47,071 nucleotides of DNA from Bdellovibrionota bacterium (GCA_041739995.1 JBGSMV010000004.1:1-47071); one strand, 5' to 3'; numbered from the stretch's first letter, positions 9,973 through 36,403 are shown. Program-made: numbers and translations. Notes: a model not told the origin generated them from the letters alone.

Positions 9973-10001
9973 ATCTTCGGTGTTTCAGCGGAAAAGTTTC
10001 G
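9973..10001 (-). promoter_or_regulatory. Putative alternative-sigma promoter (GAAACTT-N13-CCGA) upstream of the muramidase
   Basis: Minus strand reads CGAAACTT ttccgctgaaaca CCGAAGAT, about 90 nt before ATG 9885. Confidence 0.65.
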
Positions 10002-10061
10002 TCGCTTGCAAAAGCCTCTTTGGCTTCAATTGGGGAACATCTACGTGGCGGGGGGTTGAAA

Positions 10062-11294
10062 TCACTTCGAATCGGGAAGTGCCTTGATGGCGGCGGCGAA
10101 AGCATCGCACACATACTCAATATTCGATGGATTGAGTGCCGGAACAGAGATTCGACCGTTACCCGTAAGAAAGATTGAGTATTTTGACTTGAGAAACTGA
10201 ACTTGTTCTTGAGTGAGTCCGGTAAAAGAAAACATTCCGAACTGATCGACGACATGCTCAAAGTCGAATCCGCGCTGCTTCATGCCACTTGCAAGAGCTG
10301 AGCGCATCGAGGCGATTCGTTGACGCATGACACCAAGCTCACGGATCCAAAGCTCTTCAAGATCTGGATTAGTAAGCACCTCAGCGACAAGCTGAGCGCC
10401 GCGAGAGGGAGGATTGGAGTAAATTGCTCGAACGATCTGCTTTATCTGACTTAAGGTGGCACCTGCCTCAGTAGGACTACTGGTCACTACATGCAGGGTG
10501 CCGACTCTTTGGGAATAAAGTGAGAATGATTTGGAAAGCGAGCTCGCAATAAAACACGGAATACCACGAGCAACAAACTCACGGATAGGCGCAGCATCTT
10601 CTTGGAGGCCATACTTGAATCCCTGATAGGCAAAATCAATTACGGGAATATGGCTCGAGCGCTCAAAAAACGCCCCCAACATGCGCCAATCTTCTGGCGA
10701 AAAGTCCTTGCCGGTGGGGTTGTGACAGCAGGCATGCAGAATGATGGCGGTGCGCTGCGGAAGCCCTTCAAGATATCCGAGCACTTCCTCTACTTGCACG
10801 GCCCGACGAGTGCTGTCGTAGTACGGATACTCAAGCACTTGAAAATCGAGCTCAGAAAAAATTCCACGGTGATTTGGCCAGGTCGGATTCGGAATAGCGA
10901 CGGCGAGTGGAGATTTCAGAATGCGACGGACAAGATGCGCTGCCAGGCAAATAGCCGCAGTGCCCCCTGGGGCTTGGACCGTAGCGACGTTCGGCAAAAT
11001 CGTTGAATTCTCACCGAAGGTAAGTTTTTGCATCGCTTGCACATAGTTAGGCAGGCCATCGATCGGAAGGTACCCTTCGATGTGTGGGCGTGCGAGAAGC
11101 CGGTGGGCGGCATGAGAAACTGCATCGAGCACAGGTGTCACCCCATGTTCATTCATGTAGACGCCAGGACCTAAATTCTGCCTGTCCTTATGGGTAGACT
11201 TAGCGAAGTCCGAGGAGAGCCCAAGAATTGGATCGGGGGGCAATTCGGCAAGAGAGGAGAATAAACTAGCGACCACAGGTGATAAACGATTCAT
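10062..11294 (-). CDS. Aspartate/aromatic amino acid aminotransferase (AspC/TyrB family)
   Basis: PPDPILGL, PTWPNH, LHACCHNPTG, DFAYQGF, PLP-lysine motif SLSKSFSLYSQRVG, GMFSFTGL. Start uncertain (11294 or 11309). Confidence 0.96.
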   Translation of the reverse strand: MNRLSPVVASLFSSLAELPPDPILGLSSDFAKSTHKDRQNLGPGVYMNEHGVTPVLDAVSHAAHRLLARPHIEGYLPIDGLPNYVQAMQKLTFGENSTILPNVATVQAPGGTAAICLAAHLVRRILKSPLAVAIPNPTWPNHRGIFSELDFQVLEYPYYDSTRRAVQVEEVLGYLEGLPQRTAIILHACCHNPTGKDFSPEDWRMLGAFFERSSHIPVIDFAYQGFKYGLQEDAAPIREFVARGIPCFIASSLSKSFSLYSQRVGTLHVVTSSPTEAGATLSQIKQIVRAIYSNPPSRGAQLVAEVLTNPDLEELWIRELGVMRQRIASMRSALASGMKQRGFDFEHVVDQFGMFSFTGLTQEQVQFLKSKYSIFLTGNGRISVPALNPSNIEYVCDAFAAAIKALPDSK

Positions 11295-11522
11295 TTTCAA
11301 AACCCTCAAGGTTCAAAAACCCTCGGTCCCTCTCCTGTTATTCTCACGGCACAGGCCCCGTGAGGGCGCCAGCAGCGGTGAGAACGACGCACCTTCGGCG
11401 CCTTGATGAGCAGAGAAGCGGGAAATCAAAGGCAGAACAGATCGTAGAGGTTGGAAACAGCACTGTCAAACATCTGAATTTATGAGGATAACTAGGGAGA
11501 TGTGAGGTCGTAGGCGGGGAGA

Positions 11523-11551
11523 GGAAACTTTTGGATAAAATTGCCGAAGAG
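11523..11551 (+). promoter_or_regulatory. Putative alternative-sigma promoter upstream of the sigma gene
   Basis: GGAAACTT ttggataaaattg CCGAAGAG, about 46 nt before ATG 11598. Confidence 0.65.
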
Positions 11552-11597
11552 CTACCCCAGAACCAATCCGAAAGTTGTTTTACGGAAGTTTGACCAG

Positions 11598-12425
11598 ATG
11601 GCTACTAAGCGCAGCACCAAGACGAACCGTCCGGAGAAGAAGCGATCGAGCCCTAGTCGACGACAATCTTCGGCCTCAGTGGATGACGTGAAGCAAGGTA
11701 CCTCTTCTCTAGCCGATCGCGATCAGCTGATTACGCGGTATCAGCGCTTTGTGAATGGGCTGGTGGGCAAGCTGATCAGAACTCTCTCGCTTCCTAGTGA
11801 CCAAACTGATGAATATGTGGCGGCGGGTTATTTGGGTCTAGTCGAGGCCGCAGAGCGCTTTGATCCAAATTCTGGGGTCGAGTTTAGCACCTATGCATAT
11901 CTCAGAATCCGCGGAGCGGTAATCGATAGTGTTCGCGAGAGCTCGTATCTATCGGCAAAAGCGCTTCGTTTTGCGAAGGGGATGCAAGCGGCTCACGAGC
12001 TTCGTGAAGCTGAAGTTCTTGGAAGAAGCAAAGAACAGGGCAAGCCAGGTGTTGCTGAGATGCTTGATAGTGTGGCGAGTGGTGCACTAGTGCATCGCCT
12101 GTGCGGAGACTCCGGTCATGACGCACTCACCCATGCCACGGCTGTTTCCCAAACGCCTGAGTCCCTCATGGAAGAAGATCAGGGGCGCTCCGAGATTCGT
12201 GAATGGGTCGGGACTCTCCCCGAGAAAGAAAGAGCAATTATCGAAGACTACTATTTTAGGGGAAAATCGTTCACCGATATCGTTGAGTCGAGTGAAGGCA
12301 TGTCAAAGTCCTGGGTTTCGAGGCTCCATTCTCGCGCACTGCAGCAACTCAAAGAACGGATAGTATTTCAGGGGATTACTCCACTTAAGTGCGAAAAAAG
12401 CAAACTACAAAGCGGAACCCCATGA
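11598..12425 (+). CDS. Sigma-70 family sigma factor, FliA/WhiG-like, T3SS-locus associated
   Basis: Region 2 GYLGLVEAAERFDPNSGVEFSTYAYLRIRGAVIDSVR; region 4 LPEKERAIIEDYY...MSKSWVSRLHSRALQQLK. ATG 11598 preferred over TTG 11541. Confidence 0.92.
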   Translation: MATKRSTKTNRPEKKRSSPSRRQSSASVDDVKQGTSSLADRDQLITRYQRFVNGLVGKLIRTLSLPSDQTDEYVAAGYLGLVEAAERFDPNSGVEFSTYAYLRIRGAVIDSVRESSYLSAKALRFAKGMQAAHELREAEVLGRSKEQGKPGVAEMLDSVASGALVHRLCGDSGHDALTHATAVSQTPESLMEEDQGRSEIREWVGTLPEKERAIIEDYYFRGKSFTDIVESSEGMSKSWVSRLHSRALQQLKERIVFQGITPLKCEKSKLQSGTP

Positions 12426-12476
12426 GCAGGAAAAGCTAAAGTCATTCGATAGGCTGTATGTCCCAGATGGATCGCT

Positions 12477-13319
12477 ATGAAAGGAAAACGTTTTTCAATA
12501 TCAGTTGCTCATGTGTTCATTCGGATCATAGCTGGCGGTCTCCTGATCTCAATGTTGCTCGGCTGCGACGAGCAGATCGTGCACTACTTGTCTGAGAATG
12601 AAGCAAACGTTCTGGTCACTCATCTCGCGGATGTCTCAATTTCTTCAAAGAAGGTACGGCAAGCGGATGGTTCTTGGGCACTTGCCGTTGATGAAACAGA
12701 TCAGCTTCCTGCACTGAGAGCTCTCAGTGCTGCCCGCCTATTGAGATCTAATGAACCAAGAGAACCAGAACGTGGATCTCTCGTCGTGGGCCGAGACGAG
12801 CAGCGCTTTCGTCATGAACGAGCATTGAGTGCGGAGATCGAACGAACTCTTACCACGATCCCCTCGGTGCTTGAGGGAAGAGTGCATTTGAATTTGCCAA
12901 TTGTAGATCCGCTCTTCGGGCAACGCCTTGAGAAGCGCCCAGGTAGTGCGAGTGTCGTCGTGGTTGTGCGAGGGGAGGGCCCCTCCAAAGAAGAGATTGC
13001 CTTGATTGTTTCCGGGGCTTCGGGAATTCCCGTTGCTCTTGTATCGGTGATGATGCAGCAGCCGCCTCAGCATGAAGTCGCTTCAACCACACGCGGGATT
13101 TTGCCACTGGTGGATGCTGCAGTAGCGAGCGCCCCAGGAGTAGCGCCGAAACTCTTAGGACCGGCAGAGATCGGTGTACCTAATCCCAGCTTCTTTAGGG
13201 CTCACCGCGGACTTCTGATTCAAATAGCGGTTTCTTTGATGATTTTCGGCGGTGGTTTGTTGCTGCTTCTTCGTCGGCGCCCCAGTGCAAGAAACCTCTC
13301 GTCTGCAGGAATAGTGTGA
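12477..13319 (+). CDS. sctJ: Type III secretion inner-membrane ring lipoprotein (SctJ/YscJ family)
   Basis: Lipobox LLGC, LSENEAN, EIERTLTTIPSVLEGRVHL, SASV, IVSGA, C-terminal TM plus basic tail; 280 aa is SctJ size, not FliF size. Confidence 0.88.
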   Translation: MKGKRFSISVAHVFIRIIAGGLLISMLLGCDEQIVHYLSENEANVLVTHLADVSISSKKVRQADGSWALAVDETDQLPALRALSAARLLRSNEPREPERGSLVVGRDEQRFRHERALSAEIERTLTTIPSVLEGRVHLNLPIVDPLFGQRLEKRPGSASVVVVVRGEGPSKEEIALIVSGASGIPVALVSVMMQQPPQHEVASTTRGILPLVDAAVASAPGVAPKLLGPAEIGVPNPSFFRAHRGLLIQIAVSLMIFGGGLLLLLRRRPSARNLSSAGIV

Positions 13320-13328
13320 GGTGTTTCG

Positions 13329-14279
13329 ATGAGGAATGTAATTATCGAACAGGGCAACACGCAAACCGCTCGGGAGATTGCTGACTATATTGCTTCGGAA
13401 CTGTTGCGCACACTCAGGAGTTCGCTCGGTCACACGCATTGCTTGGAGATTCGAGCAGGCGCTTCATTCCAGCTACGCTCCCATTATGAGCAGCGCCTTT
13501 CAGTACAATGTCGTAGCAACGGGACGAGGGCCGCGATTGCTTTATCGACTGAGCATAAACCCCTGTCTCGTGTTGCGCTCTACCATCTTGTTCGTGAAGC
13601 GACGCGTACTCCTTTTAAGATTGATGGCCTGTGTCCTTTCGTGAGTTCTCAGGAGCGCTGTTTTCAGTATCGAGTGTTTGATAAGGCAGGATTGTCCCTG
13701 GGCGTGCTGTGTGTGTGGGTCGATAAGGGGACGGTTAGCGAGACGAATCTCTTTGCCGATACGGGGCCATTGCCTGAAGAACAGACGCCGCAGAACGTGC
13801 AGATGCTGCTTAGTTGCTCGATTGGCGAACTTTCAACACAGTATGAACTTTCCCTTCCGCATGAGATTTGCGCGGTCGTTGCCTCCATTCCAAAGATGAT
13901 TCGATTGCAGCTACTGGCGCGCACCGATACGCGGATGGACCCTCTTTCAATGAAAATAGTCGATATAGGAGAATGTATGCAGTCAGAATCACAATCTTTG
14001 GATCCATCTTTGCAGTTCACCCTTGATCTTGGCTGTCTCAACATCTCTTTGGAAGATTTCGTTTCGCTTAGACCGGGCAGCACTATTCGGGTTCCTGAGA
14101 TCAACTCGTCGACAGGGTTCCTGAGGTACGGAGGAGAGCCGGTCGCCTCTGTTGAGGTGAGTTTCGAGGCGACAGAACTAAAGATTCGGGTGGTCGATTT
14201 CTTTAGGGTTCCCGTCAGAGACGCGCAGGGCTGTGAGGTAGAGGTTGGTAATTTGATCGGTACGCAGCACCCCGCTTAG
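13329..14279 (+). CDS. SctQ/FliM-FliN-like C-ring protein (C-terminal SpoA domain)
   Basis: C-terminal LQFTLDLGCLNISLEDFVSLRPGSTI...PVASVEV...LKIRVV matches the SpoA pattern; directly follows sctJ. Confidence 0.72.
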   Translation: MRNVIIEQGNTQTAREIADYIASELLRTLRSSLGHTHCLEIRAGASFQLRSHYEQRLSVQCRSNGTRAAIALSTEHKPLSRVALYHLVREATRTPFKIDGLCPFVSSQERCFQYRVFDKAGLSLGVLCVWVDKGTVSETNLFADTGPLPEEQTPQNVQMLLSCSIGELSTQYELSLPHEICAVVASIPKMIRLQLLARTDTRMDPLSMKIVDIGECMQSESQSLDPSLQFTLDLGCLNISLEDFVSLRPGSTIRVPEINSSTGFLRYGGEPVASVEVSFEATELKIRVVDFFRVPVRDAQGCEVEVGNLIGTQHPA

Positions 14280-14379
14280 CCGCAATAGCCAAAAACTCTT
14301 CATAAGAACAGAGACTTACCGCTCTGCCCGCTACAGGTGTGTGCTCATATTTTCCCGGCGTGGTTCGCGCCGAGCAACA

Positions 14380-14408
14380 GGAAACTTTCGCTGAAAATCT
14401 CCGATAAG
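14380..14408 (+). promoter_or_regulatory. Putative alternative-sigma promoter upstream of the needle-like/sctV operon
   Basis: GGAAACTT tcgctgaaaatct CCGATAAG, about 90 nt before ATG 14497. Confidence 0.7.
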
Positions 14409-14496
14409 GCAGCACAGTAAATGACGGTACTCCCTCGAGTGCCAAATTAGCTAAGGCTGCAAGTTGAGCAGTCTAGGTATCAAAGAGGAGTGAATT

Positions 14497-14826
14497 ATGG
14501 CGAATCCAATAAGCATCAATCACATGGGAGCCCACCTTGATTTTGGAAAGGTGGCTCGGTTTCTTCCTGAACCAACCAATCGTTCAGGCCTCTCATTCTC
14601 TTCAGTGCTTGAAGGGGCCTCTGGTCTTGTAAGCAAGGTTGCGGGAATCGCACTCGGCGGCGGGGGCGCGCAACAGTTCCCAAACTTAGACCCCGGATAC
14701 GCCGACCTGCTGCAAAAGCAGATTGAAGTTCAGGTGCAGATGCAACTGATGACTCTTTATTCAAACATCGAAAAATCACAACACGAGACGAAAATGACTT
14801 CGTTACGAAACATTAGAGTTGGCTAG
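14497..14826 (+). CDS. Small helical protein, needle/inner-rod (SctF/SctI)-like C-terminus
   Basis: Strong GAGGAG RBS; C-terminus LLQKQIEVQVQMQLMTLYSNIEKSQHETKMTSLRNIR fits the needle-type S-N-x-x-K...x-x-N-I pattern. Confidence 0.6.
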   Translation: MANPISINHMGAHLDFGKVARFLPEPTNRSGLSFSSVLEGASGLVSKVAGIALGGGGAQQFPNLDPGYADLLQKQIEVQVQMQLMTLYSNIEKSQHETKMTSLRNIRVG

Positions 14827-14850: not shown

Positions 14851-15084
14851 ATGAAACTTAAGACATGGCAAATTGAGGCATTGGCTTCCGGGCTTCCGAT
14901 TGCGGAGACCCGGAAGGTCCGACGAGTTTCACGCCGACTGTTGGAACTGCGTGATGAGGAGACTTGGGCAGCTGAGAGCGAGGAAACTCGCACCAGTTCA
15001 GCAGGCATGTTTGGTCACCTCGGTGCGAGCGCAGTAGAGCAGGGAGCCAGGAACTCGTTTCAAAAGCTAGGAGATAGGGCCTAA
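14851..15084 (+). CDS. Small hypothetical protein in T3SS-like operon
   Basis: 77-aa ORF packed between the needle-like gene and sctV (3-bp gap). Confidence 0.55.
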   Translation: MKLKTWQIEALASGLPIAETRKVRRVSRRLLELRDEETWAAESEETRTSSAGMFGHLGASAVEQGARNSFQKLGDRA

Positions 15085-15087: not shown

Positions 15088-16983
15088 ATGAAGGAGCTTG
15101 TTGTTCCGTTTGGGTTGCTTGCGGTGATGGGAAGTTTGCTGCTGCCTGTGCCACCGATGGCGCTAGACTTTATGCTGGTGGGGAACTTGGTGCTGGCGTT
15201 GGTTCTTTTCCTAAGCTCGCTCTACGTATCCGACTCACTCAAGCTCTCATCGCTTCCCTCACTGTTATTGATCGCCACTCTCTATCGACTGGGACTTAAC
15301 GTAGCCACGACTAGGGCAATTCTAAGCGGTGGAGACGCAGGGCAGGTGGTGTTGGCCTTCGGCGAGACGGTCATCGCGGGGAATCTCGCGGTGGGGCTAG
15401 TGGTATTCGTGGTCCTTACTCTGATTCAGTTTGTAGTGATAGCAAAAGGTGCCGAACGTGTCGCGGAAGTGGCGGCGCGTTTTACTCTTGATGCGCTTCC
15501 GGGCAAGCAAATGTCCATTGATGCGGATGTGCGGGCGGGGTTGATTGACTTTGAAACGGCGCGGACACGAAGAAATGACTTGCAAACTGAGTCAAGATTT
15601 TTCGGGGCACTGGACGGTTCAATGAAGTTTGTGAAGGGCGACGCAATCGCTGGCTTGTTCATGGTTGCGGTCAATATTGTCGGAGGACTAGCCGTGGGCA
15701 CCATTGGAGAGGGCATGAGTTTCTCCAGAGCGGTGCAACACTTTACCTTACTCACCATCGGAGACGGGCTGGCATCACAGATTCCTGCACTCTTGAATGC
15801 ACTTGCCGCAGGAATGGTGGTTACGCGCGTGTCACGCGGCGATAATCAAACTTTAGCTCAAGAGGTATTGCAGCAACTGGGCCAGATTCGGAGCGTGAAG
15901 GTCATCATCGGGCTGTTTATTGCCTTGATTGGGATCGTTCCCGGAATGCCGGCTCTTCCATTCTTGAGTCTGTCAGGAGTCCTGCTTCTTTCGGCGATTC
16001 TCTCGCATGGTAAGGGTACCGGTGAACCAGTGAAGCAGGTTGAAAAATTTGAACCGCGAGTGCCTGCCACACTGGCCATTGAGGTTGGGGAAAAAGCGCG
16101 AACGCAGCTGCACGGCTCTCCAGCGCTGATGCCGACAATGCTCAAGTTTCGAGAAGAGACCCATCGTCGACACGGTTTGGTGATCGGGCTTCCAGAGTTT
16201 GAAGTGGCGCGAGAGTTGACCAACGGCTACCGCCTAAAGCTGCGTGGCATACCAGTCGCACAAGGAGTGCAGGGAGCTGAGGCGACGCAGACCCTCAAGC
16301 AAATCTTCGAAGCGTTGCACACAATTGTATCTGATCGGATGGTCGAGCTTATAGACGACATCATAACCCGTCGCATGCTTGATTCTCTAGAACGAGAGGC
16401 ACCTGAACTGATTGCTGCAGTTGTTCCAGCTGTGGTTACAGTTACTCAGTTGACTGAGCTGCTACGGATGCTGGCGCGTGAGCAAGTCTCGCTAAAGAAC
16501 TTTGATGTTATTGTACAAGCGGTGGCTGAAAGTGGCTCGAAAGCGGCCAATGAGCGGGTGTTGCTTGAAGAGGTGCGCATCGCCTTGCGCCGAGTGATCT
16601 CACACCAGCACGCTCTCGCTAACGCTAAAGTGCGCGCCTTAGTGCTGGACCCAGTGGTCGACCTCACTATTGCCCAGACTGAGCGAGAGAATCGCCCACT
16701 CTCGGTTGATGTCATCGCTCACATTGCTGAACAGCTCCTATTGCAGCATTCGGACGGCCGAGTGCTTGCAACCTCGCGTACCTCACGGCGACTGCTTGCG
16801 GATTGTCTTCGCCTTCGAGGCGTGACGATGCCGGTGATTGCATTTGATGAGCTGGCCGAAGGGTATCAGTTCGACATCGAAGGACGCGTGGACATATCAG
16901 AGGAACTTTCGGCTAAGTCAGATGATCAATTGTTGGGAAGTCCGTTTGGTTCTCAAAAATCAACCGAGGAGGACAGAATATGA
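15088..16983 (+). CDS. sctV: Type III export gate protein (SctV/FlhA, FHIPEP family)
   Basis: KGAERVAEVAARFTLDALPGKQMSIDAD, FFGALDGSMKFVKGDAIAG, LLTIGDGLASQIPAL; cytoplasmic domain divergent. Confidence 0.93.
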   Translation: MKELVVPFGLLAVMGSLLLPVPPMALDFMLVGNLVLALVLFLSSLYVSDSLKLSSLPSLLLIATLYRLGLNVATTRAILSGGDAGQVVLAFGETVIAGNLAVGLVVFVVLTLIQFVVIAKGAERVAEVAARFTLDALPGKQMSIDADVRAGLIDFETARTRRNDLQTESRFFGALDGSMKFVKGDAIAGLFMVAVNIVGGLAVGTIGEGMSFSRAVQHFTLLTIGDGLASQIPALLNALAAGMVVTRVSRGDNQTLAQEVLQQLGQIRSVKVIIGLFIALIGIVPGMPALPFLSLSGVLLLSAILSHGKGTGEPVKQVEKFEPRVPATLAIEVGEKARTQLHGSPALMPTMLKFREETHRRHGLVIGLPEFEVARELTNGYRLKLRGIPVAQGVQGAEATQTLKQIFEALHTIVSDRMVELIDDIITRRMLDSLEREAPELIAAVVPAVVTVTQLTELLRMLAREQVSLKNFDVIVQAVAESGSKAANERVLLEEVRIALRRVISHQHALANAKVRALVLDPVVDLTIAQTERENRPLSVDVIAHIAEQLLLQHSDGRVLATSRTSRRLLADCLRLRGVTMPVIAFDELAEGYQFDIEGRVDISEELSAKSDDQLLGSPFGSQKSTEEDRI

Positions 16984-17576
16984 AAGCATTTGCAATCTCA
17001 GTACTGAGTGTTGTGTGTATGAGTGGGTGCGGGCTCCTTCTGGCTCCTCCCAGCACTCCCTCAGTTTCCGAAGCTGAACGTATAGAAGCCATTGTTCAGC
17101 GTGGTGTTCAAGCAATGCAGCGTGGCGACCTCACGCGGGCCGACGCTGCATTCGCGCTTGCACTCGAAATAGGCTCAAGTGCGGCCGCCCTGGATGGTCA
17201 TGGATGTGTAGCTCTACTTCAGGGAGACTTTGAGGTGGCTGAGCGGTATTTTCTAACAGCACTTGGGCAAGATCCTAAGTATAGAGGTGCCCTAGGAAAC
17301 CTGGCACTTCTCTATGATATAAGTGGTCGACCGGTAGAAGCGGCGGCGCTGTATGAGTCAGCGATTAGGGCCCTTCCGACCAATGTGGCGCTTCGAAACA
17401 ACTTTGCAGCGCTTCTCGCCGATAACAAAGAGCAGAAGACTTTCAGTGGCAGGCAGGGGGCTGAAGACCCTACAGGGCTGAAGTACAGCCGTGCGGCGCG
17501 TGAGCTGAGGAAAGCAGCAACGCTTGCAGCACACCCGATAGTTATGAGTAACTTAGAACGAATGGAGGCACCATGA
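16980..17576 (+). CDS. TPR-containing lipoprotein (pilotin-like)
   Basis: Signal peptide with lipobox MSGC; TPR-like helices (ALGNLALLY, NNFAALL); ATGA overlap with the sctV stop. Confidence 0.8.
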   Translation: MKAFAISVLSVVCMSGCGLLLAPPSTPSVSEAERIEAIVQRGVQAMQRGDLTRADAAFALALEIGSSAAALDGHGCVALLQGDFEVAERYFLTALGQDPKYRGALGNLALLYDISGRPVEAAALYESAIRALPTNVALRNNFAALLADNKEQKTFSGRQGAEDPTGLKYSRAARELRKAATLAAHPIVMSNLERMEAP

Positions 17577-17896
17577 ATGCAATGAAGGCCGAAAAGCAGA
17601 AAGCGAACACGGCAGCAAATAAGAAGGGCAAGATCTCTGTTCGTCCCCCTTCGGCGACCAAAAAACCTGAAGGTGCTGACCAAATAGAGGAACAGCTCGC
17701 CAAGGTTTGGGCGGAGGAAGTGATAGCGTTGCAGGCGCAGCGTTTCACCACAGTGGAAGCAGCTCTTGGTGCGGTGGTAACTCAGGTGGTCAAAAGAATG
17801 TCGGGAGATGACGAGATGAAGGAGTTTCTCACATTCATGTGCGAAACTGATCCGGATATGCTGGACAGTCTCCGTGAGCTGCTTGTGCGTGCTTAG
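17573..17896 (+). CDS. Small hypothetical helical protein, last gene of T3SS-like operon
   Basis: ATGA overlap with the TPR gene and GGAGG RBS; 107 aa. Confidence 0.7.
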   Translation: MNAMKAEKQKANTAANKKGKISVRPPSATKKPEGADQIEEQLAKVWAEEVIALQAQRFTTVEAALGAVVTQVVKRMSGDDEMKEFLTFMCETDPDMLDSLRELLVRA

Positions 17897-18122: not shown

Positions 18123-18180
18123 GCTTCGGGGGACAAGTCGGCGGGACGTCGTCGTCTGTGCCTACGGCACAGACTCCTAG
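18123..18180. repeat. Dispersed REP/MITE-like repeat family B, copy 1
   Basis: GCTTCGGGGGACAAGTCGGCGGGACGTCGTCGTCTGTGCCTACGGCACAGACTCCTAG, similar to 38331-38388; perfect 9-bp hairpin GTCTGTGCC/GGCACAGAC. Confidence 0.85.
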
Positions 18181-19082
18181 CCTTGTAAGCGTTCCGCCAA
18201 ATTTGGGATCTTTTCGGCCACGTTAGCATCTTCGTTTGAGTGTGTGGCCTCAGCAGTGGTTGCTGAGTCTTGGGTCGGCGCCTCGTTTGTCGCTGTAGAG
18301 GAGGCTTCAGCGGCACTTTCAGTATTAACGGAAGGGGCGTCTTCTTTAACCTGTTTGCGAGCAACGAGGCGTTTTCTAAGACGACCGAGTCTTGTGGCAG
18401 GGCCGTTGCTTCTTTCAAGGCAGAACTCAATCATGGCGTCTTGCAAGCGATCCGGACCGCCGCGCGCAAAAAGTTTTCCAATTTCTACTGATCGTTTCAA
18501 CCCCGCTACCCGACGTGGAAGATCGCGCCTGGCAGTTTCGAATTGCTGTGACTGACGCAGCGTCATGGCAAGCTTGTCTACTTGGGTCAGTACTAAAGCG
18601 GCGAGCGCTTCGTTGCGGTCTTTGGCAAAGAGAATCGCATCGGCGATAGGCTCGCCCTTCGTTGCCATGATAAGGGACTCGTCGATTGAATCCTCAGTGA
18701 ATGGCTTTACGATAAAACCTCTCGCACCCAGCATCAGCAGTCCAAAGACGTCGTCAACATTAGGCTCCCATGAACTGGGAATTGCTATGGTGGTGTCGTC
18801 GAGTTCAAGTATCTTCGATAGAAAGTCACCACTGGGCATTGAGGTCTTCTTGGCCTCAAAAATGATGTGTGAGAAACGGCGCTCCTCAAATTTCTTGAGT
18901 GCCTGAACGTGGTCTGGTGCATCGCTCACAGTACCGATGCCGAGTCGAACGATCATTTGCCGCAGGCTGTTGCGCATCGAAATTTCTGGTTCGACTACGA
19001 GAACGGAGATCTGTTTACGATCTGCGTCGCTGAGACCAGGCGGGCCGCTGCGCTTAATTTGTTGAGCGAACGAAGATTTCAT
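18177..19082 (-). CDS. Atypical response regulator (pseudo-receiver plus helical C-terminal region)
   Basis: Receiver pattern VLVVEPE...IIFEAK...MPSG...GARGFIVKPF, with Glu in place of the phosphoacceptor Asp. Confidence 0.82.
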   Translation of the reverse strand: MKSSFAQQIKRSGPPGLSDADRKQISVLVVEPEISMRNSLRQMIVRLGIGTVSDAPDHVQALKKFEERRFSHIIFEAKKTSMPSGDFLSKILELDDTTIAIPSSWEPNVDDVFGLLMLGARGFIVKPFTEDSIDESLIMATKGEPIADAILFAKDRNEALAALVLTQVDKLAMTLRQSQQFETARRDLPRRVAGLKRSVEIGKLFARGGPDRLQDAMIEFCLERSNGPATRLGRLRKRLVARKQVKEDAPSVNTESAAEASSTATNEAPTQDSATTAEATHSNEDANVAEKIPNLAERLQG

Positions 19083-19139
19083 CAAAGATCTTTCCCTTCC
19101 TGGCTGGGTAGAGGTGTAGCGTCTGCCCAGCCTTAATAG

Positions 19140-19195
19140 TATCGACGGGTTAGCCGAGGAGCTTAATCCTAGGAGTTTCCACTAACCCCTCGATA
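19140..19195. promoter_or_regulatory. Inverted repeat / back-to-back sigma28-like promoters between divergent regulators
   Basis: TATCGACGGGTTAG (19140-19153) vs CTAACCCCTCGATA (19182-19195), 13/14 match; minus strand reads TAAG-N15-GTCGATAC. Confidence 0.55.
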
Positions 19196-19243
19196 GTGTT
19201 TGTGTTTCTGGCAGAGGAACAAGAAACTGGCTATAGAAAGCCT

Positions 19244-19996
19244 ATGACTTCACCCAAACCCCCACGAGTGCTTATTGCTGACGATGACCAAGACACACGT
19301 GGGTTAGTACAGCTCGGAATTTCCATGCTCGGGTACGAGGTGATCGAGGCGACTGACGGGGCCGACGCCTGGGAGAAGTTCCAGTCCGAACTTCCCGCTA
19401 TCGCAGTTCTTGATAACAACATGCCAGGACTTACCGGAGTAGAAGTGTGCCAGCGCATTCGCGCTCATCCAGACGGTGCCATCGTGCCGGTGCTAATGCT
19501 TACTGCCAACGAGCTTCTTAAAGATAAGGTCTCCGCATTCGCAGAAGGAGTCGACGACTATCTCACTAAGCCTTTTCATCTCGAGGAGCTGCAAGCCCGC
19601 GTAAAAGCCCTTCTGCGCGTGCGAGATCTCAACCAACGTTTAGCGGAAAAGAATAGTGAGTTAGTAGGAATGCAGGAGCGACTGGTGAAGCAAGAGCGCC
19701 AGACGGTGGTGACTCAGCTTGCCGGCACCGCTGCTCACCAGCTGGGGCAACCGCTTGCGGCCATAATGCTGAATTGCCATCTGCTCGAAAGATTGCCTTC
19801 TACTGATGAACGCTTTCAAAAAGCGCTTGGCGCGGTGAAAGCTGATACGAAGCGAATGGCTGAGCTGATAGAGCAATTGCGCGGTGCTGACGCCCAGAAA
19901 ACCACACCGTATCACCAGGGCGAGCAGATCCTTAATTTGGGTAAAGACCCTGAGCCAGCAGTAGATTCAGCGCAAAAGAGCGCGAAGAAGGCCTAA
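19244..19996 (+). CDS. Response regulator receiver fused to HisKA-like dimerisation domain, no ATPase domain
   Basis: VLIADDD...VLDNNMPGLTG...MLTA...DDYLTKPF; coiled coil; H-box-like AAHQLGQPLAAI; ends without N/G boxes. Confidence 0.9.
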   Translation: MTSPKPPRVLIADDDQDTRGLVQLGISMLGYEVIEATDGADAWEKFQSELPAIAVLDNNMPGLTGVEVCQRIRAHPDGAIVPVLMLTANELLKDKVSAFAEGVDDYLTKPFHLEELQARVKALLRVRDLNQRLAEKNSELVGMQERLVKQERQTVVTQLAGTAAHQLGQPLAAIMLNCHLLERLPSTDERFQKALGAVKADTKRMAELIEQLRGADAQKTTPYHQGEQILNLGKDPEPAVDSAQKSAKKA

Positions 19997-22754: not shown

Positions 22755-23384
22755 CTATGCCGCCTCGCGCGTTTCTGGCGGAAGCTCCTTTAGTCCGGTG
22801 AACTCAAGATAGTAACGGGCAAGCTTTCTTCTCAACATTAAACGTGAGCGGTGAAGCCTGGACTTTACCGCCGGAATAGAGAGATCCAAGATCTCGCTGA
22901 CTTCTTGATTCGAGAGTCCATCAACATCGCGAAGGACAAATACTGCGCGGTATTGTGCCGGTAATCGATTAATTGCTTGATCAAGAATCTGCCGCAGCTC
23001 GTTGTTCTGGGTGATGGTATCCGAGCGATGTAGAATTGGATTGTCCTGCTCAAGACATGCTTGACGAATTTGAGGAGCAAGATCCTCTATCGAAATAGTG
23101 TGTTGCTGCTTTCGCTTACGCAGCTTCATGAAGGCAGCGTTCACGATAATGCGATACATCCAGCTTGAGAACTGTGACTGGCCGCGAAAGCCGTCAAGCT
23201 TGCTATAGATTGTGGCAAACACGTCTTGCACTACTTCTTCCGCATCTTCTTGGTTGCGGCAGAATCTCATGGCAAGGTTATAGACCTTGCTTTCATAGCG
23301 ACTGATTAGTTCTTCGAAGGCCTCCATCGAGCCCGCTCGAACTTCTTCTACCAATGACGCGTCGGATACTTTTTTCTGCTTCAT
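22755..23384 (-). CDS. ECF sigma-70 factor (RpoE-like)
   Basis: DAEEVVQDVF, FSSWMYRIIVN, LPAQYRAVFVLRDVDGLSNQEVSEILDLSIPAVKSRLHRSR. Confidence 0.95.
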   Translation of the reverse strand: MKQKKVSDASLVEEVRAGSMEAFEELISRYESKVYNLAMRFCRNQEDAEEVVQDVFATIYSKLDGFRGQSQFSSWMYRIIVNAAFMKLRKRKQQHTISIEDLAPQIRQACLEQDNPILHRSDTITQNNELRQILDQAINRLPAQYRAVFVLRDVDGLSNQEVSEILDLSIPAVKSRLHRSRLMLRRKLARYYLEFTGLKELPPETREAA

Positions 23385-23634
23385 ACAACTCACTCCCTGA
23401 GAAACCCAAAATCCTTAAAGAGACATTCCGTGTCATCTGAGCGAGCGCATTCACCTGCTCTCTCAGCATGCCCCCCTTTTGTGCCATCTCAGGGGTTTTA
23501 TTTGTCACCGTCGCGTCGTGTGGCTGTAACAAATGTGTAAAATGGGCATTCGATCAGCACTTTTCCGAAACGGAACAGTGATTGAAAGGATTCAGCAGCG
23601 ATATCGAACAACGTTTTTGAGGTCTTGGAGTTGC

Positions 23635-27190: not shown

Positions 27191-28000
27191 ATGTTCACAA
27201 GGCACCAAGCACTCCCAGGACTCTCCCCTAAAGGTTCACGGCAAGCCCCACGAAGGACGATACTTCAAGGATTGTGCCAAATCTTCCTGATTCTTTCTTT
27301 ATTGGCGCTGCTGGGAGCTTGTAGCCGTCGCTATGACGATCTCCCGGCCTATCTTCCTTACTGGTTCGACGAGAAACCAAATGAGTCAGTAGGACGCTTT
27401 AAGACTTCCTACCTTACCGAGCAAATTGATGAGTACTATCGCGGGGTCAATCCTGGACCTATCGGAGTGACCACCTTCGTCAACATTGACGATCTCTACA
27501 CCACCTCAACCTTTGGTCGCATGGTGTCTGAGCAGGTCATGAGCGAGCTCACCATGAAGGGCTATGACGTCATAGAGCTACGGCATTCTGATGCCTTACA
27601 GTTTTTAAATCCCAGCGGGGAGTTCGCGCTTTCACGAGATATTGCTACGGTTCGTCGCGAACGAGAGCTTGGTGGTGTGGTTGTTGGCACTTACGTGATT
27701 TCTCCGGTACGAGTCTACGTCAACGCGCGCTTGGTGGATCCAAGTTCTTCAGTGGTGCTTTCAGCCGGCTCAGTCGAAATGTCGAAGACCAAAGAAATTG
27801 CGCGTATGTTGCGTAACGGTTCGGTTCCAGGAACTTTAGAGCGAATCCCCGTGAGACATCTTGGGAATTCTACCTATCCGATGATGGGCTGGCCGGGCAT
27901 GAACACGCGTCAGTTTGATGATGAGTCTTCGTCAGGCGCCCATAGCGATTTCTCCCTTACTCCTCAGTACGTTCCTGGCGGACCTGTGGGAGCGCGTTAG
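27191..28000 (+). CDS. FlgO-family outer-membrane lipoprotein
   Basis: Lipobox LGAC; IGVTTFVNIDDL..TSTFGRMVSEQ..ELR..GEFALSRD..VVGTY..VNARLV. Confidence 0.85.
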   Translation: MFTRHQALPGLSPKGSRQAPRRTILQGLCQIFLILSLLALLGACSRRYDDLPAYLPYWFDEKPNESVGRFKTSYLTEQIDEYYRGVNPGPIGVTTFVNIDDLYTTSTFGRMVSEQVMSELTMKGYDVIELRHSDALQFLNPSGEFALSRDIATVRRERELGGVVVGTYVISPVRVYVNARLVDPSSSVVLSAGSVEMSKTKEIARMLRNGSVPGTLERIPVRHLGNSTYPMMGWPGMNTRQFDDESSSGAHSDFSLTPQYVPGGPVGAR

Positions 28001-31823: not shown

Positions 31824-31908
31824 GAAGGCACCATTCTCAAAAAAGGCAGCGAAACCCTCCTGTACCAGGGATAAGGGCAGGAGTGAAGAGTTTTAGAATA
31901 AGAGATTC

Positions 31909-32101
31909 GTAACCCTTCACGTTGAATCTACTAATCGGCGCAAAGCGCAAAGATCGCTGGGTCCGGGGGTGAAAATACCATCCGGTCACAAAATGCAGGC
32001 GTCCCCGATCAGGGGATGACCACAGAACTGCCACCACTGAGTATTTTTCAGCTCAATACCTACCTAACACCGCCAGTTAATTTTACCCCGTGAACGGATA
32101 T
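31909..32101. mobile_element. MITE-like dispersed repeat family A, copy 2
   Basis: Starts GTAACCCTTCACG and ends CGTGAACGGATAT; shares CACAAAATGCAG, AACTGCCACCACT, CCTAACACC and TTTACCCCGTGAAC with copy 1. Confidence 0.7.
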
Positions 32102-32664: not shown

Positions 32665-33468
32665 ATGACGACTCAAGGCGAACTTCCATCGACGCAAGAC
32701 TTGAATGCCACCGCAGCAGCAGTTATCGCTGACAGTACACTTGCCGCTTTTGCACCAGATGACGAACAAGCCACGCTGAGCGGCGCAACATCACAAACTT
32801 ATCACGGCTGGGTTTGCTCCGGGCCATTCTTTGAAACGGTGCTCTTCGTGTACTGCGCAGATCGCAACATGGTTCGGTCGGCAAAGCTCGGTGCTCAGGT
32901 ACCCATTTCCTTCGACATCTTTGATCCCGACGGCTTTCATTGTAACCGGGTGGATATTCTTGCTGGCATTGGGCCAGTCTCCGCCGTCGAGTGGGATCCA
33001 TTTCTTGGAAGTTGTAAGTTCGAAGCAGGAATGAAGCATGCACACGTCGTGGCGCATTTGCCCCCAGGGTTTCGTGCGGTTTCACGCCTGGTATCACAGC
33101 AGTCTGGCTGTTTGTTTGGAAAAGCCTTGAGACTTACCACCACGACTCGAACTTTCATGCCCGTAACGCTGGCACGTGATCGGTTCCCCATGCTGGTTCT
33201 TCTCAACCGCTCGGAAGTAGAGGCGACGGTTCGAGGACGACTGTTTTGTGGAAAGAGAACCCCAGAAAATGTTTGGAATATTCCTGCGAACGGATCGCGC
33301 ATATTGAGTATTGCGCACGAGTTTGGAGATGCCATTGCGTTGGAGCCGGAAGAGCAGGTCCAGGCCTATCTTCGCATGGGAGTGCGTGGTGACTACGAAG
33401 TAGGAGCCCAGTTTATTGAACGCCTACAAGGGCCAAGCGATGGGAGTGTTTTCCTCGCGCTTGGATAG
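32665..33468 (+). CDS. Hypothetical protein (beta-rich)
   Basis: 267-aa ORF, first of three co-oriented closely spaced ORFs. Confidence 0.7.
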   Translation: MTTQGELPSTQDLNATAAAVIADSTLAAFAPDDEQATLSGATSQTYHGWVCSGPFFETVLFVYCADRNMVRSAKLGAQVPISFDIFDPDGFHCNRVDILAGIGPVSAVEWDPFLGSCKFEAGMKHAHVVAHLPPGFRAVSRLVSQQSGCLFGKALRLTTTTRTFMPVTLARDRFPMLVLLNRSEVEATVRGRLFCGKRTPENVWNIPANGSRILSIAHEFGDAIALEPEEQVQAYLRMGVRGDYEVGAQFIERLQGPSDGSVFLALG

Positions 33469-33508
33469 AAACTGATGGGCCTCCTGTGAGGGGCAGTTGG
33501 AGAAAGGC

Positions 33509-34528
33509 ATGCAAACGGTGCGGTGGTTGGGATTCTGTGTCTCACAGTCGATGAGCAGAAGCCTGTTACATTTCTTCCCGTCTTGTGAGAACGCGAGCGC
33601 GCCCTATCCGGCGACCTGCACGCTTACGTTGCTTGCTGGGGAGGGCTCAGGACAGAACAATGCAGTGCAGCCTCATGCAATCCAGCGAAATGGTCCTGAT
33701 GCTCGCGGCGCTCAGTTGGACGCGGCTCCCCCAGTAAGGGCAGTAGTGGCGCTTGAGGGCGGACGCCTCGGCCATCCTGACGGATTGCGACTCGAAGATG
33801 CGTTTCCGACGCTTCGTACAGAGGTCTCCGGACTGTTCGGCATTCAGGTGGAAATCAGTACCCCTCAACCGCGATTGGATGTGGGCAGCTCGGGCTGCGT
33901 ACTTGAAGTGATTTCGCAAAGCCAACCCGTGCGGTTCGTGCCTAAGAAACTGCTTGGAAAAGAGTCATCAAATGGACGAGATGCGGGACGTCGTGGAAAG
34001 TGGGCGGACAGTCGCACTAAGGCCCCTGCATCTGGAGCGACCCAAATGAGCGTCGTTGCTCAAGAGCAGCGATCTTCAGTGAGCATGAGTTCGGTCAGCG
34101 GAATGGCAATTTTAGACGGGCAACAGGCGCCCTCGCTTGTTTTCGTAAATGCTTCGAATAAACCGATTTCCGCCGCGGTATTTTCTTTAACCTCGCGTGG
34201 TCGCGAGCCGGGTGCGGAAGGGGAGGATTTGCCGGTTGCGAGCATTCAGCTTGCCGCGGGACAAACGAGAGAGCTTCCCTTGCAAGACGGCGCGTTTGCT
34301 TCAGCGACAAGCCACGAATTCCTATCAGGGCGTTGTCAAAGTTTGCCGTTCTGTGTCGAGCTGCGTGATGAGTCCCTCTCGAAGGAGGGCGGGTCGGAAA
34401 ATGAAGGAAGCTCAGGGGAGAGTGTCGCCAGTGTTGAAGCGAGCCAAGTAGGCATATTTCTTGTGCACCGTGAGGCAAGAACGAAGCGGCTTGCCTCGGT
34501 GGTTACTCTTGAAAGCGCTGATTTCTAG
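33509..34528 (+). CDS. Hypothetical protein (beta-rich with disordered linkers)
   Basis: ORF with purine-rich RBS before ATG 33509. Confidence 0.7.
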   Translation: MQTVRWLGFCVSQSMSRSLLHFFPSCENASAPYPATCTLTLLAGEGSGQNNAVQPHAIQRNGPDARGAQLDAAPPVRAVVALEGGRLGHPDGLRLEDAFPTLRTEVSGLFGIQVEISTPQPRLDVGSSGCVLEVISQSQPVRFVPKKLLGKESSNGRDAGRRGKWADSRTKAPASGATQMSVVAQEQRSSVSMSSVSGMAILDGQQAPSLVFVNASNKPISAAVFSLTSRGREPGAEGEDLPVASIQLAAGQTRELPLQDGAFASATSHEFLSGRCQSLPFCVELRDESLSKEGGSENEGSSGESVASVEASQVGIFLVHREARTKRLASVVTLESADF

Positions 34529-34545
34529 TTTGGTCGAGAAGAGTT

Positions 34546-35337
34546 ATGAGTATTGCATTTTTTAGCCCATACGGTCTCGCTAGTGAAGAAACAGGCGTGT
34601 TGGCGCTGCTATGTAGCTACCTGCGTCAAAGCAACTACGCGGTGAATTCCTTGCAGTGTAATGGAATCTTCTCATTGTGTGAGCGCGATGCGGAAAATGG
34701 CTGGCGTCGTGGAGTGCGGAGCTGTTTCTCCTGCATGCATGAGCAGAGCGCGGTGGCACGTTGGAGTGGCGCAGAAATTCACGAGCTGTCCAGGTTCTTA
34801 GACCCCGATGAGGTGAGCGAGAGTCGCCGCTGGTCGATGGCGCTTTCACGAAAGACATTTGAGGCGTTGCCGTATGGTGACCTTAATGTGCTGCCCTTGG
34901 TGAGAGACTCTTTCGTTGCCCGTACGGGAAGAGACAGCATTGAAAATGCTTCTGACGAAGAGTTCGATACCTTACGTCGTATGATGCTCTCCTCAGTTCG
35001 AGCAATGCTTGCAAGCAAGCGGTTTCTTAAGACTAAGGATATTCAACTTGGGCTTGTGGCGGGCTGTAGGGACAATGTTTCCGCCGCCTTTGTTGCAGGA
35101 GCACAAAGTGCCGGTGTCGCTGTGGCGGAGTTTCGATGGGACATCCTGTCCCGTTCAGTCCAGGTGACGCACCCCGCCGCGGACAAAGCTTTTTCTTGTC
35201 CGGTGGTCTTTGATGATGTGACCGAAATGCGTACTGACGCCCGTACTTGGCCAGGTGAAATCATTCGCTTGGTTGATGAGTTAATGGTGTTCCTTGAAAT
35301 TTCCACCAGTCAGCTCCAGCTTCCACTTGCGCAGTAG
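34546..35337 (+). CDS. Hypothetical protein with Cys cluster; resembles N-terminal part of capsule-biosynthesis-type proteins
   Basis: CNGIFSLCE...CFSC; alternating strand/helix pattern; family assignment is from recall only. Confidence 0.6.
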   Translation: MSIAFFSPYGLASEETGVLALLCSYLRQSNYAVNSLQCNGIFSLCERDAENGWRRGVRSCFSCMHEQSAVARWSGAEIHELSRFLDPDEVSESRRWSMALSRKTFEALPYGDLNVLPLVRDSFVARTGRDSIENASDEEFDTLRRMMLSSVRAMLASKRFLKTKDIQLGLVAGCRDNVSAAFVAGAQSAGVAVAEFRWDILSRSVQVTHPAADKAFSCPVVFDDVTEMRTDARTWPGEIIRLVDELMVFLEISTSQLQLPLAQ

Positions 35338-35579
35338 TTTAAGGCCCTTCAAATCGTCGCTCTGACGCTTAGTCTCCTTTGAGGAACTTTCGGTTCCGTT
35401 GCGCCCCCTTAACGCCTGCCCACCTGTGCGGGATATCAGGGTGGTGGGAAACACGAGCAAAAAGGAAGTTGGCGGCTTAAATACCATTTCCCCAAATAGC
35501 CTTCATATTACAGGAACGCATAGATTTCGGTGGTGAGTCCGTGTGTGTCAGGGGTGCAGTTGTTGGGGGATATCGGGAA

Positions 35580-36284
35580 ATGATTACTAATAGAATTAGT
35601 GGTTCTGAACGAGTTGGCCGAGAACCAAATGCGGGCGAGTTAAGTGCCCCGCAAGCTACAATCGAGCGCCTATGTGCGAAGTATGGGCTATCATTCATCC
35701 GAGATCTTCAACCCGATCTCGGTGTAGGGACTTCTACGCACCTCGTGCGAAGAGGGAATGAAGAGCTAGTTCTCAAAGCTTTGACACCCGACGCGCAGTG
35801 CGGCGGCGAAAGGATGCCAGTGGGGCATCTGTCGATTGGGCTCGCAACCCTGCGTCGTGAGGATTTGGTATTACGGGCCGAGCTTCCAGGGCTTCCGCAG
35901 CATAAAGGAACTCTTGTCGGCGAAGATGGCAACAGAGAGGCGGTGTTAAGGAGCTTTCATCCTGGCAGCTCAGTAGTGGATCTCGTACAGCAAAGCCTTT
36001 TGAAAGACGCAGATTTCGAGCGCGCCCTGAGGGCACTCTTGGAAAAGGCAGACGCTAGAGGCTTTCGTCTATTAGACACCGACGCCTCCAACTTTATTGT
36101 CGCCGCCGAGTACAGCATCGTGAATCCTTACGCGGTCCATCGTACTTTGATGCTGATTGACCCAGAGGCTCTCTCCCCACGCAGCGAGTATGTGGAAGTC
36201 GAAGGCCGAGATCCGGTGCAAGACGTGATGAACTCACTTCGCGCGAAGGTTGCGGCGCCTAACGCAGACCGACTGGCTGCATAA
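35580..36284 (+). CDS. Divergent protein-kinase-like fold protein
   Basis: Gly-loop-like LGVGTS, VLKAL, catalytic-loop-like LDTDASNFIV, LIDPE. Confidence 0.6.
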   Translation: MITNRISGSERVGREPNAGELSAPQATIERLCAKYGLSFIRDLQPDLGVGTSTHLVRRGNEELVLKALTPDAQCGGERMPVGHLSIGLATLRREDLVLRAELPGLPQHKGTLVGEDGNREAVLRSFHPGSSVVDLVQQSLLKDADFERALRALLEKADARGFRLLDTDASNFIVAAEYSIVNPYAVHRTLMLIDPEALSPRSEYVEVEGRDPVQDVMNSLRAKVAAPNADRLAA

Positions 36285-36374
36285 CTCTCTTTCATTCTTC
36301 GTCGTACGGGGGTCCAGTTCCCAGGGCCTGCTTGTGCTCGATTTCTTGGCCTTAGCCGCACCGCCCCCGATATA

Positions 36375-36403
36375 GGAAACTTTCTGACTGAAATACCGAT
36401 TAG
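36375..36403 (+). promoter_or_regulatory. Putative alternative-sigma promoter upstream of orphan exported protein
   Basis: GGAAACTT tctgactgaaata CCGATTAG, about 180-210 nt before the next gene. Confidence 0.55.

Follow-up and report, generated by a model that had tools for sequence, protein, structure and literature searches.

Introduction

The nearest described system to the one reported here is the attack-phase regulon of Bdellovibrio bacteriovorus HD100. According to Karunker (2013, PMC3627812), FliA (bd3318) accounts for about two thirds of the attack-phase promoters of this strain, with the consensus TTAAG-N16-CCGATA, and Avidan (2017, PMC5430801) describes activation of the TAD operon promoter by B. 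bacteriovorus FliA in E. coli; one FliA-like sigma factor is listed for HD100 (PMC3464611). Here we describe a recurrent two-box element, GAAACTT-N13-CCGA, in a stretch of 47,071 nucleotides (nt) from a Bdellovibrionota bacterium (GCA_041739995.1, JBGSMV010000004.1:1-47071), hereafter the window, which is the whole of contig C5 in a 3.81-Mb genome of 81 contigs (G000). The motif heads the operon of a FliA/WhiG-like sigma gene and three other operons of a type-III-like apparatus, and it is also found before a Tad pilus operon and about 40 more transcription units. As far as the HD100 accounts cited above go, the likeness is that both organisms belong to the same phylum and have dozens of sigma-28-type promoters, putative in our case, on many non-flagellar genes that include Tad genes. 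The difference is that HD100 serves flagellins and TAD with one FliA, whereas the present genome has two FliA-family sigma genes and two classes of -35 box. The motif class described here, furthermore, excludes the flagellins and includes the type-III-like apparatus. The HD100 genome report is said to have found no type III system.

Another relevant system is that of Myxococcus xanthus, in which contact-dependent prey killing is ascribed to Kil together with a type III secretion system (T3SS) that lacks a needle, T3SS*, in a review that calls their localisation and interplay unresolved (PMC12428579). To the extent described there and in another source on the T3SS operons, which include FliO (PMC12403147), Myxococcus shares with our genome a Tad-like operon and an atypical type-III-like set with a FliO-like gene and no linked secretin. 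A peptidoglycan hydrolase also appears among the putatively co-regulated genes here. The likeness as a whole is one of gene content only. The shared promoter motif found here is, in contrast, not reported for Myxococcus in the accounts on which we draw (PMC12428579, PMC12403147). The two systems also differ in phylum and in the small needle-like candidate gene present here, and ours is predicted from its genes.

Dedicated injectisome sigma factors of the extracytoplasmic function (ECF) type are known in HrpL of plant pathogens and BtrS of Bordetella. Our case resembles them in that an alternative sigma factor is encoded with type III genes and one box lies before both apparatus operons and dispersed cargo candidates, and differs in that HrpL and BtrS are group-4 sigmas with other boxes, whereas the sigma factor here is a group-3 relative of FliA and WhiG. 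Re-use of the sigma-28 family outside flagella has precedents in WhiG of Streptomyces, whose chains are the best solved match to the window protein, and in sigma-28 of Chlamydia, although here the second paralogue stands beside a canonical FliA. To our knowledge, Streptomyces and Chlamydia each have a single member of the family, with no linkage of its gene to type III genes. Judged from titles and the beginnings of abstracts, full-text searches of a limited library turned up no FliA-family sigma devoted to a type III system other than the flagellar one, and nothing on point for a Bdellovibrionota sigma factor combined with a T3SS.

A two-box element with strict spacing

The exact pattern GAAACTT-N13-CCGA has 30 matches in the genome. 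When spacers of 8–19 nt were compared, these 30 at N13 stood against 0–6 at each of the lengths 8–12 and 14–19. The preliminary description of the window had cautioned that the motif was defined post hoc; that worry is removed, because the same pattern recurs 30 times in the genome at N13 alone. For the window itself, 100 rounds of dinucleotide shuffling yielded 0.04 matches on average, and in no round as many as the four observed. Nineteen of the 30 exact matches lie outside the open reading frames (ORFs) as crudely called, and these calls cover 88% of the genome.

A count matrix was built from 23 seed sites outside ORFs of at least 150 amino acids (aa). Scanning at ≥16 bits gave 60 sites in the genome versus four in a first-order Markov shuffle, and at ≥18 bits the numbers were 53 versus one; a cut-off of 10 bits gave 154 matches in the 7.6 Mb of both strands, or about 0.07 per 3.6 kb. 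The 53 sites comprise 32 that lie at most 300 nt upstream of a same-strand ORF start, eight that face contig ends, nine inside long maximal ORFs and four other cases. Among the nine in-ORF sites, those on C74, C48, C36 and C77 sit in the first codons of a same-strand frame, the true start of which is probably downstream of the motif. The motif is a strictly spaced two-box element, enriched about 15–50-fold and oriented towards genes.

The seed-site counts (n = 23) read GAAACTTT, an 11-nt spacer and then n-C-C-G-A-W-W-A, and the extended consensus is (A)GGAAACTTT-N11-nCCGAWWA. GAAACTT is preceded by A (18/23) and G (16/23) and followed by T or C, a pyrimidine stands two bases ahead of CCGA at all 23 seed sites, and CCGA is followed by W-W-A with A in the last position at 22 of them. 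The consensus of FliA (sigma-28) is given as TAAAGTTT-N11-GCCGATAA in the source consulted (PMC7286023). Compared with such class-3 promoters, the boxes are of equal length and the 11-nt spacer is the same; the -35 box (GAAACTTT) agrees at six of eight positions and the -10 box (nCCGAWWA) is compatible at all eight. The differences are that the -35 box has G at base 1 and C at base 5, where the FliA consensus has T and G, that a conserved AG precedes this box, and that the targets are not flagellar genes. By its architecture, the motif is a putative sigma-28-type promoter with a variant -35 box. The earlier view of it as a hybrid of FliA-type and ECF-type promoters has to be dropped, because both boxes and the spacer fit the classical sigma-28 consensus.

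The motif precedes a FliA/WhiG-like sigma gene and the apparatus operons

The four matches in the window are at 9977-10000 (-), 11524-11547 (+), 14381-14404 (+) and 36376-36399 (+). All lie outside long ORFs and each points at a downstream ORF; the preliminary description had placed four intergenic, gene-oriented copies with N13 throughout in ranges of 29 bases, and all of them are present there. CTGAAA occurs in three of the four spacers, again as first described. Scored with the matrix, they form promoter-like sites at 9973-10003 (-; 33.4 bits) before ORF236, 87 nt from the ATG at 9885, at 11521-11551 (+; 35.8 bits) before the sigma gene, at 14378-14408 (+; 33.8 bits) before the ORF109-sctV genes, and at 36373-36403 (+; 36.6 bits, second best in the genome) before ORF358. 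The distance from motif to start is 87–91 nt for ORF236, about 47 nt for the sigma ATG (11598), 88–92 nt for ORF109 and 179–183 nt for ORF358.

The sigma gene (11598-12425, +) encodes a FliA/WhiG-like group-3 sigma of 275 aa with Sigma70_r2 and r4 domains, for which the top NCBIfam rows are FliA and WhiG models and the best solved relatives are WhiG and FliA chains. An alternative TTG start at 11541 would overlap the -10 box of its promoter. A canonical FliA is encoded at C36:25138-25890 in the order flhB-flhA-flhF-flhG-fliA, with 248.1–249 bits to TIGR02479, above the cut-off. Among the 19 sigma-70-family genes of the genome, the window sigma is the only one with the motif upstream (35.8 bits); the other 18, including fliA and the ECF gene at 22755, have at most 0.8 bits within 700 nt upstream. 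This pattern fits the autoregulation proposed in the preliminary description, so that the site at 11521-11551 is a candidate autoregulatory promoter, and does not favour the ECF sigma at 22755, which had been named there as a possible competing reader.

We found three sets of type-III-type export genes in the genome: a flagellar set, set A, to which the window sct genes belong, and set B. The motif precedes all four transcription units of set A. Two are in the window (35.8 and 33.8 bits); the third is the operon on C74, whose site scores highest in the genome (39.0 bits) and lies 32 nt ahead of the next start, and the fourth is the FliH-like/ATPase pair on C36 (30.1 bits). A scan of the remaining sct genes had been suggested on the basis of the window, and sctRSTU on C74 and sctL-sctN on C36 indeed carry the motif.

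Flagellar genes lie outside the motif class

The bacterium is flagellated as judged by its genes, with 24 Flagellin_N matches, of which 23 are above the Pfam cut-off with products of about 250–670 aa, an unusually large count. None of the 23 flagellin genes has the motif upstream above 10.5 bits, and no recognised flagellar structural gene has any of the 53 sites at ≥18 bits within 300 nt; the closest approach is that of a site of 18.4 bits, 821 nt upstream of a contig-end flagellin fragment (L074). A second pattern, CTCAA-N16-GCCGA, precedes the FliK, FliS and FliL genes and one flagellin, with 10 of 25 matches intergenic at N16 versus 0–6 at other spacings. It is one letter off the B. bacteriovorus FliA consensus TTAAG-N16-CCGATA as given in PMC3627812. 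The related form TCAA[GAC]-N16-CCGA[TC] is barely enriched (13 intergenic at N16 versus 3–12 elsewhere), and by eye the flagellin upstream regions contain heterogeneous G(T/C)CGA(T/C) boxes only.

Promoter positions are conserved in relatives

Conservation in related genomes had been proposed as a check on the motif, and the positions proved to be kept; the relatives are kin, so the following counts are not independent trials. A sigma of the window type was matched in all 41 genomes of the order that were sampled, with 28–53% identity among orthologues in relatives, and several of the weakest matches are probably canonical FliA only. Canonical FliA itself was found in 40 of the 41 genomes searched and is 62–96% identical across the order. 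With the matrix from our genome, a same-strand site was found upstream of the sigma orthologue in 15/29 loci, and sctJ follows the sigma gene in 26/29. SctR served as the probe for the C74 operon, and its orthologues have a same-strand site of ≥9 bits in 13/17 stretches, nine of them ≥14.8 bits. The FliH-like/ATPase pair has a site upstream in 12/15 stretches with no opposite-strand match, and the TadZ-like gene in 11/19 loci, with two opposite-strand matches overall. These fractions are far above chance; the matrix at 10 bits gives about 0.07 matches per 3.6 kb. In named loci from metagenome-assembled genomes (MAGs), both window promoters are present in L079 and L080; L082 and L084 have the ORF109 promoter and L086 that of the sigma gene. 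Conservation of the promoter positions extends across an order of Bdellovibrionota.

At the genome level, the pattern GMAACTTT-N13-CGAW has 812 matches in 40 relatives versus 129 for the reversed control, whereas the N16 version is flat, and the excess is at least threefold in 32 of the 40. The -10 box varies among relatives: the base ahead of CGA is C in 24/27 sites of G000 and A in 26/46 sites of relative G019 (the latter counted manually), two genomes between which canonical FliA is 84% identical and the window-type sigma 42%. In 80 SctV loci from named genomes, a sigma gene lies beside sctJ in only seven, all from Bdellovibrionota-type MAGs and one unclassified MAG, and this linkage was found in no Myxococcota, Chlamydiae or proteobacterial locus among the 80. 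The nearest SctV loci in named records, with 42–56% identity, come from MAGs labelled uncultured Bdellovibrionales or Bdellovibrionota bacterium. Taken together, the regulon idea of the preliminary description appears largely right, and its object extends to what we predict to be a genome-wide and order-wide promoter class.

Which sigma factor reads the motif

We think it probable, with some reserve, that the motif is read by the window sigma (11598-12425), a lineage-specific member of the sigma-28 (FliA/WhiG) family. This sigma is favoured because its gene alone among the sigma genes has the motif upstream and heads the apparatus, because the flagellar genes fall outside the regulon and some of them carry the second promoter class, and because the -10 box drifts while FliA stays conserved. 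It is unlikely, though worth serious consideration, that the canonical FliA on C36 reads the motif instead, alone or jointly, with the window sigma gene as one target in a cascade. The boxes and spacing do fit the general FliA consensus, the Tad operon is a conserved target here too, and FliA occurs in nearly every genome searched; on the other hand, fliA and the 23 flagellin genes lack the motif, as do the surroundings of all recognised flagellar structural genes, and FliK, FliS, FliL and one flagellin bear a different -35 box at the same spacing that is nearer to the Bdellovibrio FliA consensus. The motif's -10 box, moreover, differs among G000, G019 and G033, in spite of the 84–86% identity of their canonical FliA. 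We regard it as very improbable that an ECF (group 4) sigma, for example that of the window at 22755-23393, reads the motif as AAC-N16-CGA. GAAAC/AAC and CGA are 16 nt apart, which is like the ECF promoter layout, and the genome has several short sigma-70-family genes (about 190–260 aa), of which the window gene alone was typed as ECF; T3SS regulons run by ECF sigmas do exist, as with HrpL and BtrS. ECF sigmas usually autoregulate, however, and the 18 sigma genes other than the FliA/WhiG-like one of the window score at most 0.8 bits within 700 nt upstream; the -10 box reads on to CCGAWWA, its final A near-invariant as in GCCGATAA, and among the relatives examined the linkage of a sigma gene to sct genes was that of the sigma beside sctJ, not of the 22755 gene. 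No more credible is a non-promoter origin, in which the motif would be a transcription-factor site or a piece of a dispersed repeat or mobile element. At least 10 sites lie in multi-copy repeat families at contig ends or in IS91/IS200-like transposase genes, and three near GIY-YIG genes have extra conserved sequence past the -10 box. Against this, the boxes and their spacing alone are conserved while spacer and flanks are not; the boxes are kept before sct and tad orthologues at 40–55% protein identity where the rest has diverged, and the orientation faces genes, with no opposite-strand match in 15 ATPase loci.

Several observations weigh against the window sigma as the reader, or against the clean division between two classes on which this assignment draws. 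Its protein scores 97.4 bits against TIGR02479, below the cut-off of 189.6, and a -10 box of the CCGA type should be bound by the two FliA-like sigmas alike. B. bacteriovorus FliA, in the accounts of PMC3627812 and PMC5430801, reads a broad non-flagellar programme that includes TAD, so that here, too, the canonical protein, or both sigmas, could read the sites. Enrichment of the second promoter class is modest, and enumeration of dyads and k-mers brought out no clear motif common to the 23 flagellin upstream regions. In the relatives, 14/29 sigma orthologues have no site of ≥11 bits with the G000 matrix, the correlation of motif excess with sigma similarity is moderate (Spearman 0.42, 40 non-independent genomes), and G032 and G040 have good sigma orthologues and yet little motif excess. 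The C36 site lies 7 nt ahead of the next start codon or, in the longest ORF, within it. Finally, all gene calls are crude ORF calls made for this analysis.

If the window sigma is the reader, RNA polymerase carrying it would start transcription about 7–10 nt past the CCGAWWA box, and the sigma would boost its own synthesis. It would co-activate a contact programme consisting of the type-III-like machine, the Tad pilus, pilins, the muramidase and DNA-uptake and repair genes, while canonical FliA would run the flagellar programme apart from it by way of another -35 box (CTCAA-N16-GCCGA). The contact-programme promoter would also be shared by several mobile elements and by a CRISPR leader. A broader reading, which we offer as a tentative possibility, is that the flagellar sigma was duplicated in this order and that the copies split a programme that B. 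bacteriovorus runs with one FliA. The conserved copy would keep swimming, and the fast-evolving copy, inside a secretin-less type-III-like machine, would be a self-amplifying switch for attack and uptake, covering the Tad pilus, the type-III-like exporter, the muramidase, pilins and the ComEC/ComF/ComM/RadC DNA-uptake genes. The sigma might be gated by export of a putative anti-sigma through the machine, as FliA is by FlgM. No conserved small ORF suggests itself as this partner, because ORF77, ORF107 and ORF92 gave no tblastn match in relatives. Such a device, if real, would stand in Bdellovibrionota where the Kil/T3SS* killing device stands in Myxococcus, and its regulator would be identified as well.

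For the co-ordination of contact killing in predatory bacteria, the data point to a regulatory link in uncultured Bdellovibrio relatives, namely one promoter box, one candidate sigma and about 50 targets, with conservation that spans no fewer than 21 families. They also suggest candidate secreted proteins or partners (the ORF236 muramidase, ORF358, a collagen-repeat protein and a trypsin-like protease) and a putative example of duplication and divergence of promoter specificity in the sigma-28 family. The motif may further be of practical use in assigning the scattered contigs of a metagenome bin to a single organism.

Genes of the type-III-like apparatus

In the window, the sigma gene is followed by a gene for an SctJ-like inner-membrane ring lipoprotein (12477-13319, +), which matches YscJ_FliF with 43.3 bits and the SctJ model TIGR02544 with 72.4 versus 21.7 for FliF. 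ORF316 (13329-14279, +) is a possible SctQ-like protein, with a sub-threshold FliMN_C match over residues 228–277 (18.7–21.2 bits, cut-off 23.8). The second operon opens with ORF109 (14497-14826, +), a conserved small protein that is kept before sctV in relatives and is needle- or pilus-like by weak leads only (Atlas T3SS_needle_F 0.87, HrpA_pilin 0.85; no PDB sequence match). It continues with ORF77 (14851-15084, +), of no family, and with an SctV-like export-gate protein (15088-16983, +; FHIPEP, 512 bits), one of three FHIPEP paralogues in the genome, which scores 484 bits with the SctV model versus 455 with FlhA, both under the equivalog cut-offs. After sctV come a conserved tetratricopeptide-repeat (TPR) protein, possibly chaperone-like (16980-17576, +), and ORF107 (17573-17896, +), likewise of no family and the last likely gene of the operon. 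The gene labels given earlier hold for SctJ and SctV, which are recognisable, and for the sigma, which is FliA/WhiG-like and below the family cut-off; the sctQ label has behind it only the sub-threshold match, and the needle-like label is only a lead.

The C74 operon encodes two uncharacterised ORFs, a FliO-like protein, SctR, SctS, SctT and an SctU-like protein. SctR, with 196 bits versus a cut-off of 179, passed its subfamily model, the only Sct model that was passed. The SctU-like ORF of 262 aa (C74:47018-47806; L175:1018-1806, -) covers model positions 2–259 of 341, and its C-terminal autocleavage domain seems to be missing or separately encoded. ORF364 (C74:50069-51163), the second gene of the operon and just ahead of fliO-like-sctR, had no match at E 1e-8 in 40 relatives, the same genus included; the protein is either newly acquired or evolving fast. 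The set-A genes of C36, which diverge from flhB, are a FliH-like (sctL) gene and one for an ATPase with 390 bits for SctN versus 377 for FliI. Sct models outscore the flagellar ones each time, with a narrow margin for SctV and SctN. Set-A proteins are 38–60% identical across relatives versus 62–96% for FliA, and by this measure the evolution of the C36 ATPase follows set A, not the flagellar proteins. Candidates exist for SctR, S, T, U, V, J, N and L, and the one for SctQ is sub-threshold. No secretin was found beside the sct genes; the two ORFs with a secretin domain, each of about 1000 aa, are on other contigs.

The flagellar set is complete-looking and separate from set A, with fliF and fliI on C53, fliP, fliN and fliM on C60, and flhB-flhA-flhF-flhG-fliA on C36; its FlhA reaches 842 bits, above the cut-off. 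Set B (C55:21039-24415 and C47:28607-37876) consists of SctJ-like, FliMN_C and FliP-like genes on C55 and the third FHIPEP gene on C47, about 6 kb from a third TadZ/CpaE-like paralogue (C47:28751-29812). No motif site of ≥18 bits was found near set B.

Other targets of the motif

Targets are here genes preceded by matrix sites of ≥18 bits in G000. In the window, ORF236 (9175-9885, -) is a homologue of pesticin C-terminus-like muramidases and a candidate cargo or wall-cutting enzyme. Direct scans of Pfam, NCBIfam and PDB gave no match for it; PF16754 is, however, present on 22 of the 119 homologues listed (query excluded), at 39–59% identity, some of them named pesticin C-terminus-like muramidase, and the Atlas look-alikes score 0.95–0.97. 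The earlier muramidase label is backed by these names. ORF358 (36583-37659, +) belongs to no family in the scans and, from reading of the sequence, has a hydrophobic N-terminal segment and is likely exported. ORF236, ORF109, ORF358, ORF77, ORF107 and ORF92 all lack a direct family or structure-sequence match.

Elsewhere in the genome, a Tad operon on C64 (35.3 bits) encodes TadZ/CpaE-like, CpaB, a CpaF-type ATPase, TadB, TadC and TadG-like proteins and continues with a receiver protein and a hybrid kinase. Further pilus-related targets are a TadE-domain protein (828 aa), a GspE/PilB-like ATPase, a PilA-like pilin and another prepilin, and those of DNA uptake and repair are YifB/ComM, RadD (854 bits), RadC, a ComEC-related protein, ComF and RecN. 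The collagen-repeat protein, the trypsin-like protease, a Na+/H+ antiporter, Phd and BrnT toxin-antitoxin genes, small GIY-YIG genes and IS91-type transposases complete the set. The proposal of a T3SS regulon with dispersed cargo therefore stands as to the apparatus and the dispersed genes, and fails as to their being the whole of it: the motif class is far wider, adding Tad, pilins, DNA uptake and repair, mobile elements and a CRISPR leader. We rejected the label of a competence regulon, since the dprA site has only 8.8 bits and no ComEA-type gene was identified; the single HHH_3 match lies in an ORF of 1194 aa.

The eight sites that face contig ends head multi-copy repeat gene families, which broke the assembly. 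Contig-end sites are at C71:48631, C65:34377, C33:33562, C81:118, C74:73500, C75:317, C42:139596, C32:134, C67:611 and C68:19785. One repeat family is 72% DNA-identical to a gene with an IS200-like Y1_Tnp domain, and two IS91-type transposase genes (C77:3439, C16:14430) bear a GCAACTT variant; mobile elements seem to use the motif promoter class. Another copy (C20:34071-34101, 34.2 bits) stands upstream of a CRISPR array, at a distance of about 320 nt. The array, at the end of C20 (L043:191-580, that is, C20:34201-34590), has 36-nt repeats at a spacing of 65–67 nt, is preceded by three copies of a 39-nt element and resumes at the start of C19. It may be transcribed from the motif promoter class.

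Further copies and neighbouring genes

On C19, five copies of 15.3–25.9 bits lie within about 6 kb (C19:17230-23389) near BrnT- and HigB-type toxin genes and RadC, and those at C19:20668 and C19:22481 are near-duplicates. In three other, high-scoring copies (C48:18325-18355, C48:21949-21979 and C41:46770-46800), the -10 box is followed by extra conserved sequence that includes a short palindrome. Two of them, C48:18325 and C41:46770, are directly before GIY-YIG genes of about 80 aa, with dprA just upstream on C48.

Directly after the sct operon of the window, at 18177-19996, lie genes for a receiver-domain protein with an uncharacterised C-terminal part of 170 aa (-) and for a receiver-HisKA protein without an ATPase domain (+), which may pass signals to the secretion system. 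Further along, at 27191-28000, a FlgO-family gene (113 bits) stands among uncharacterised neighbours, apart from the other flagellar loci.

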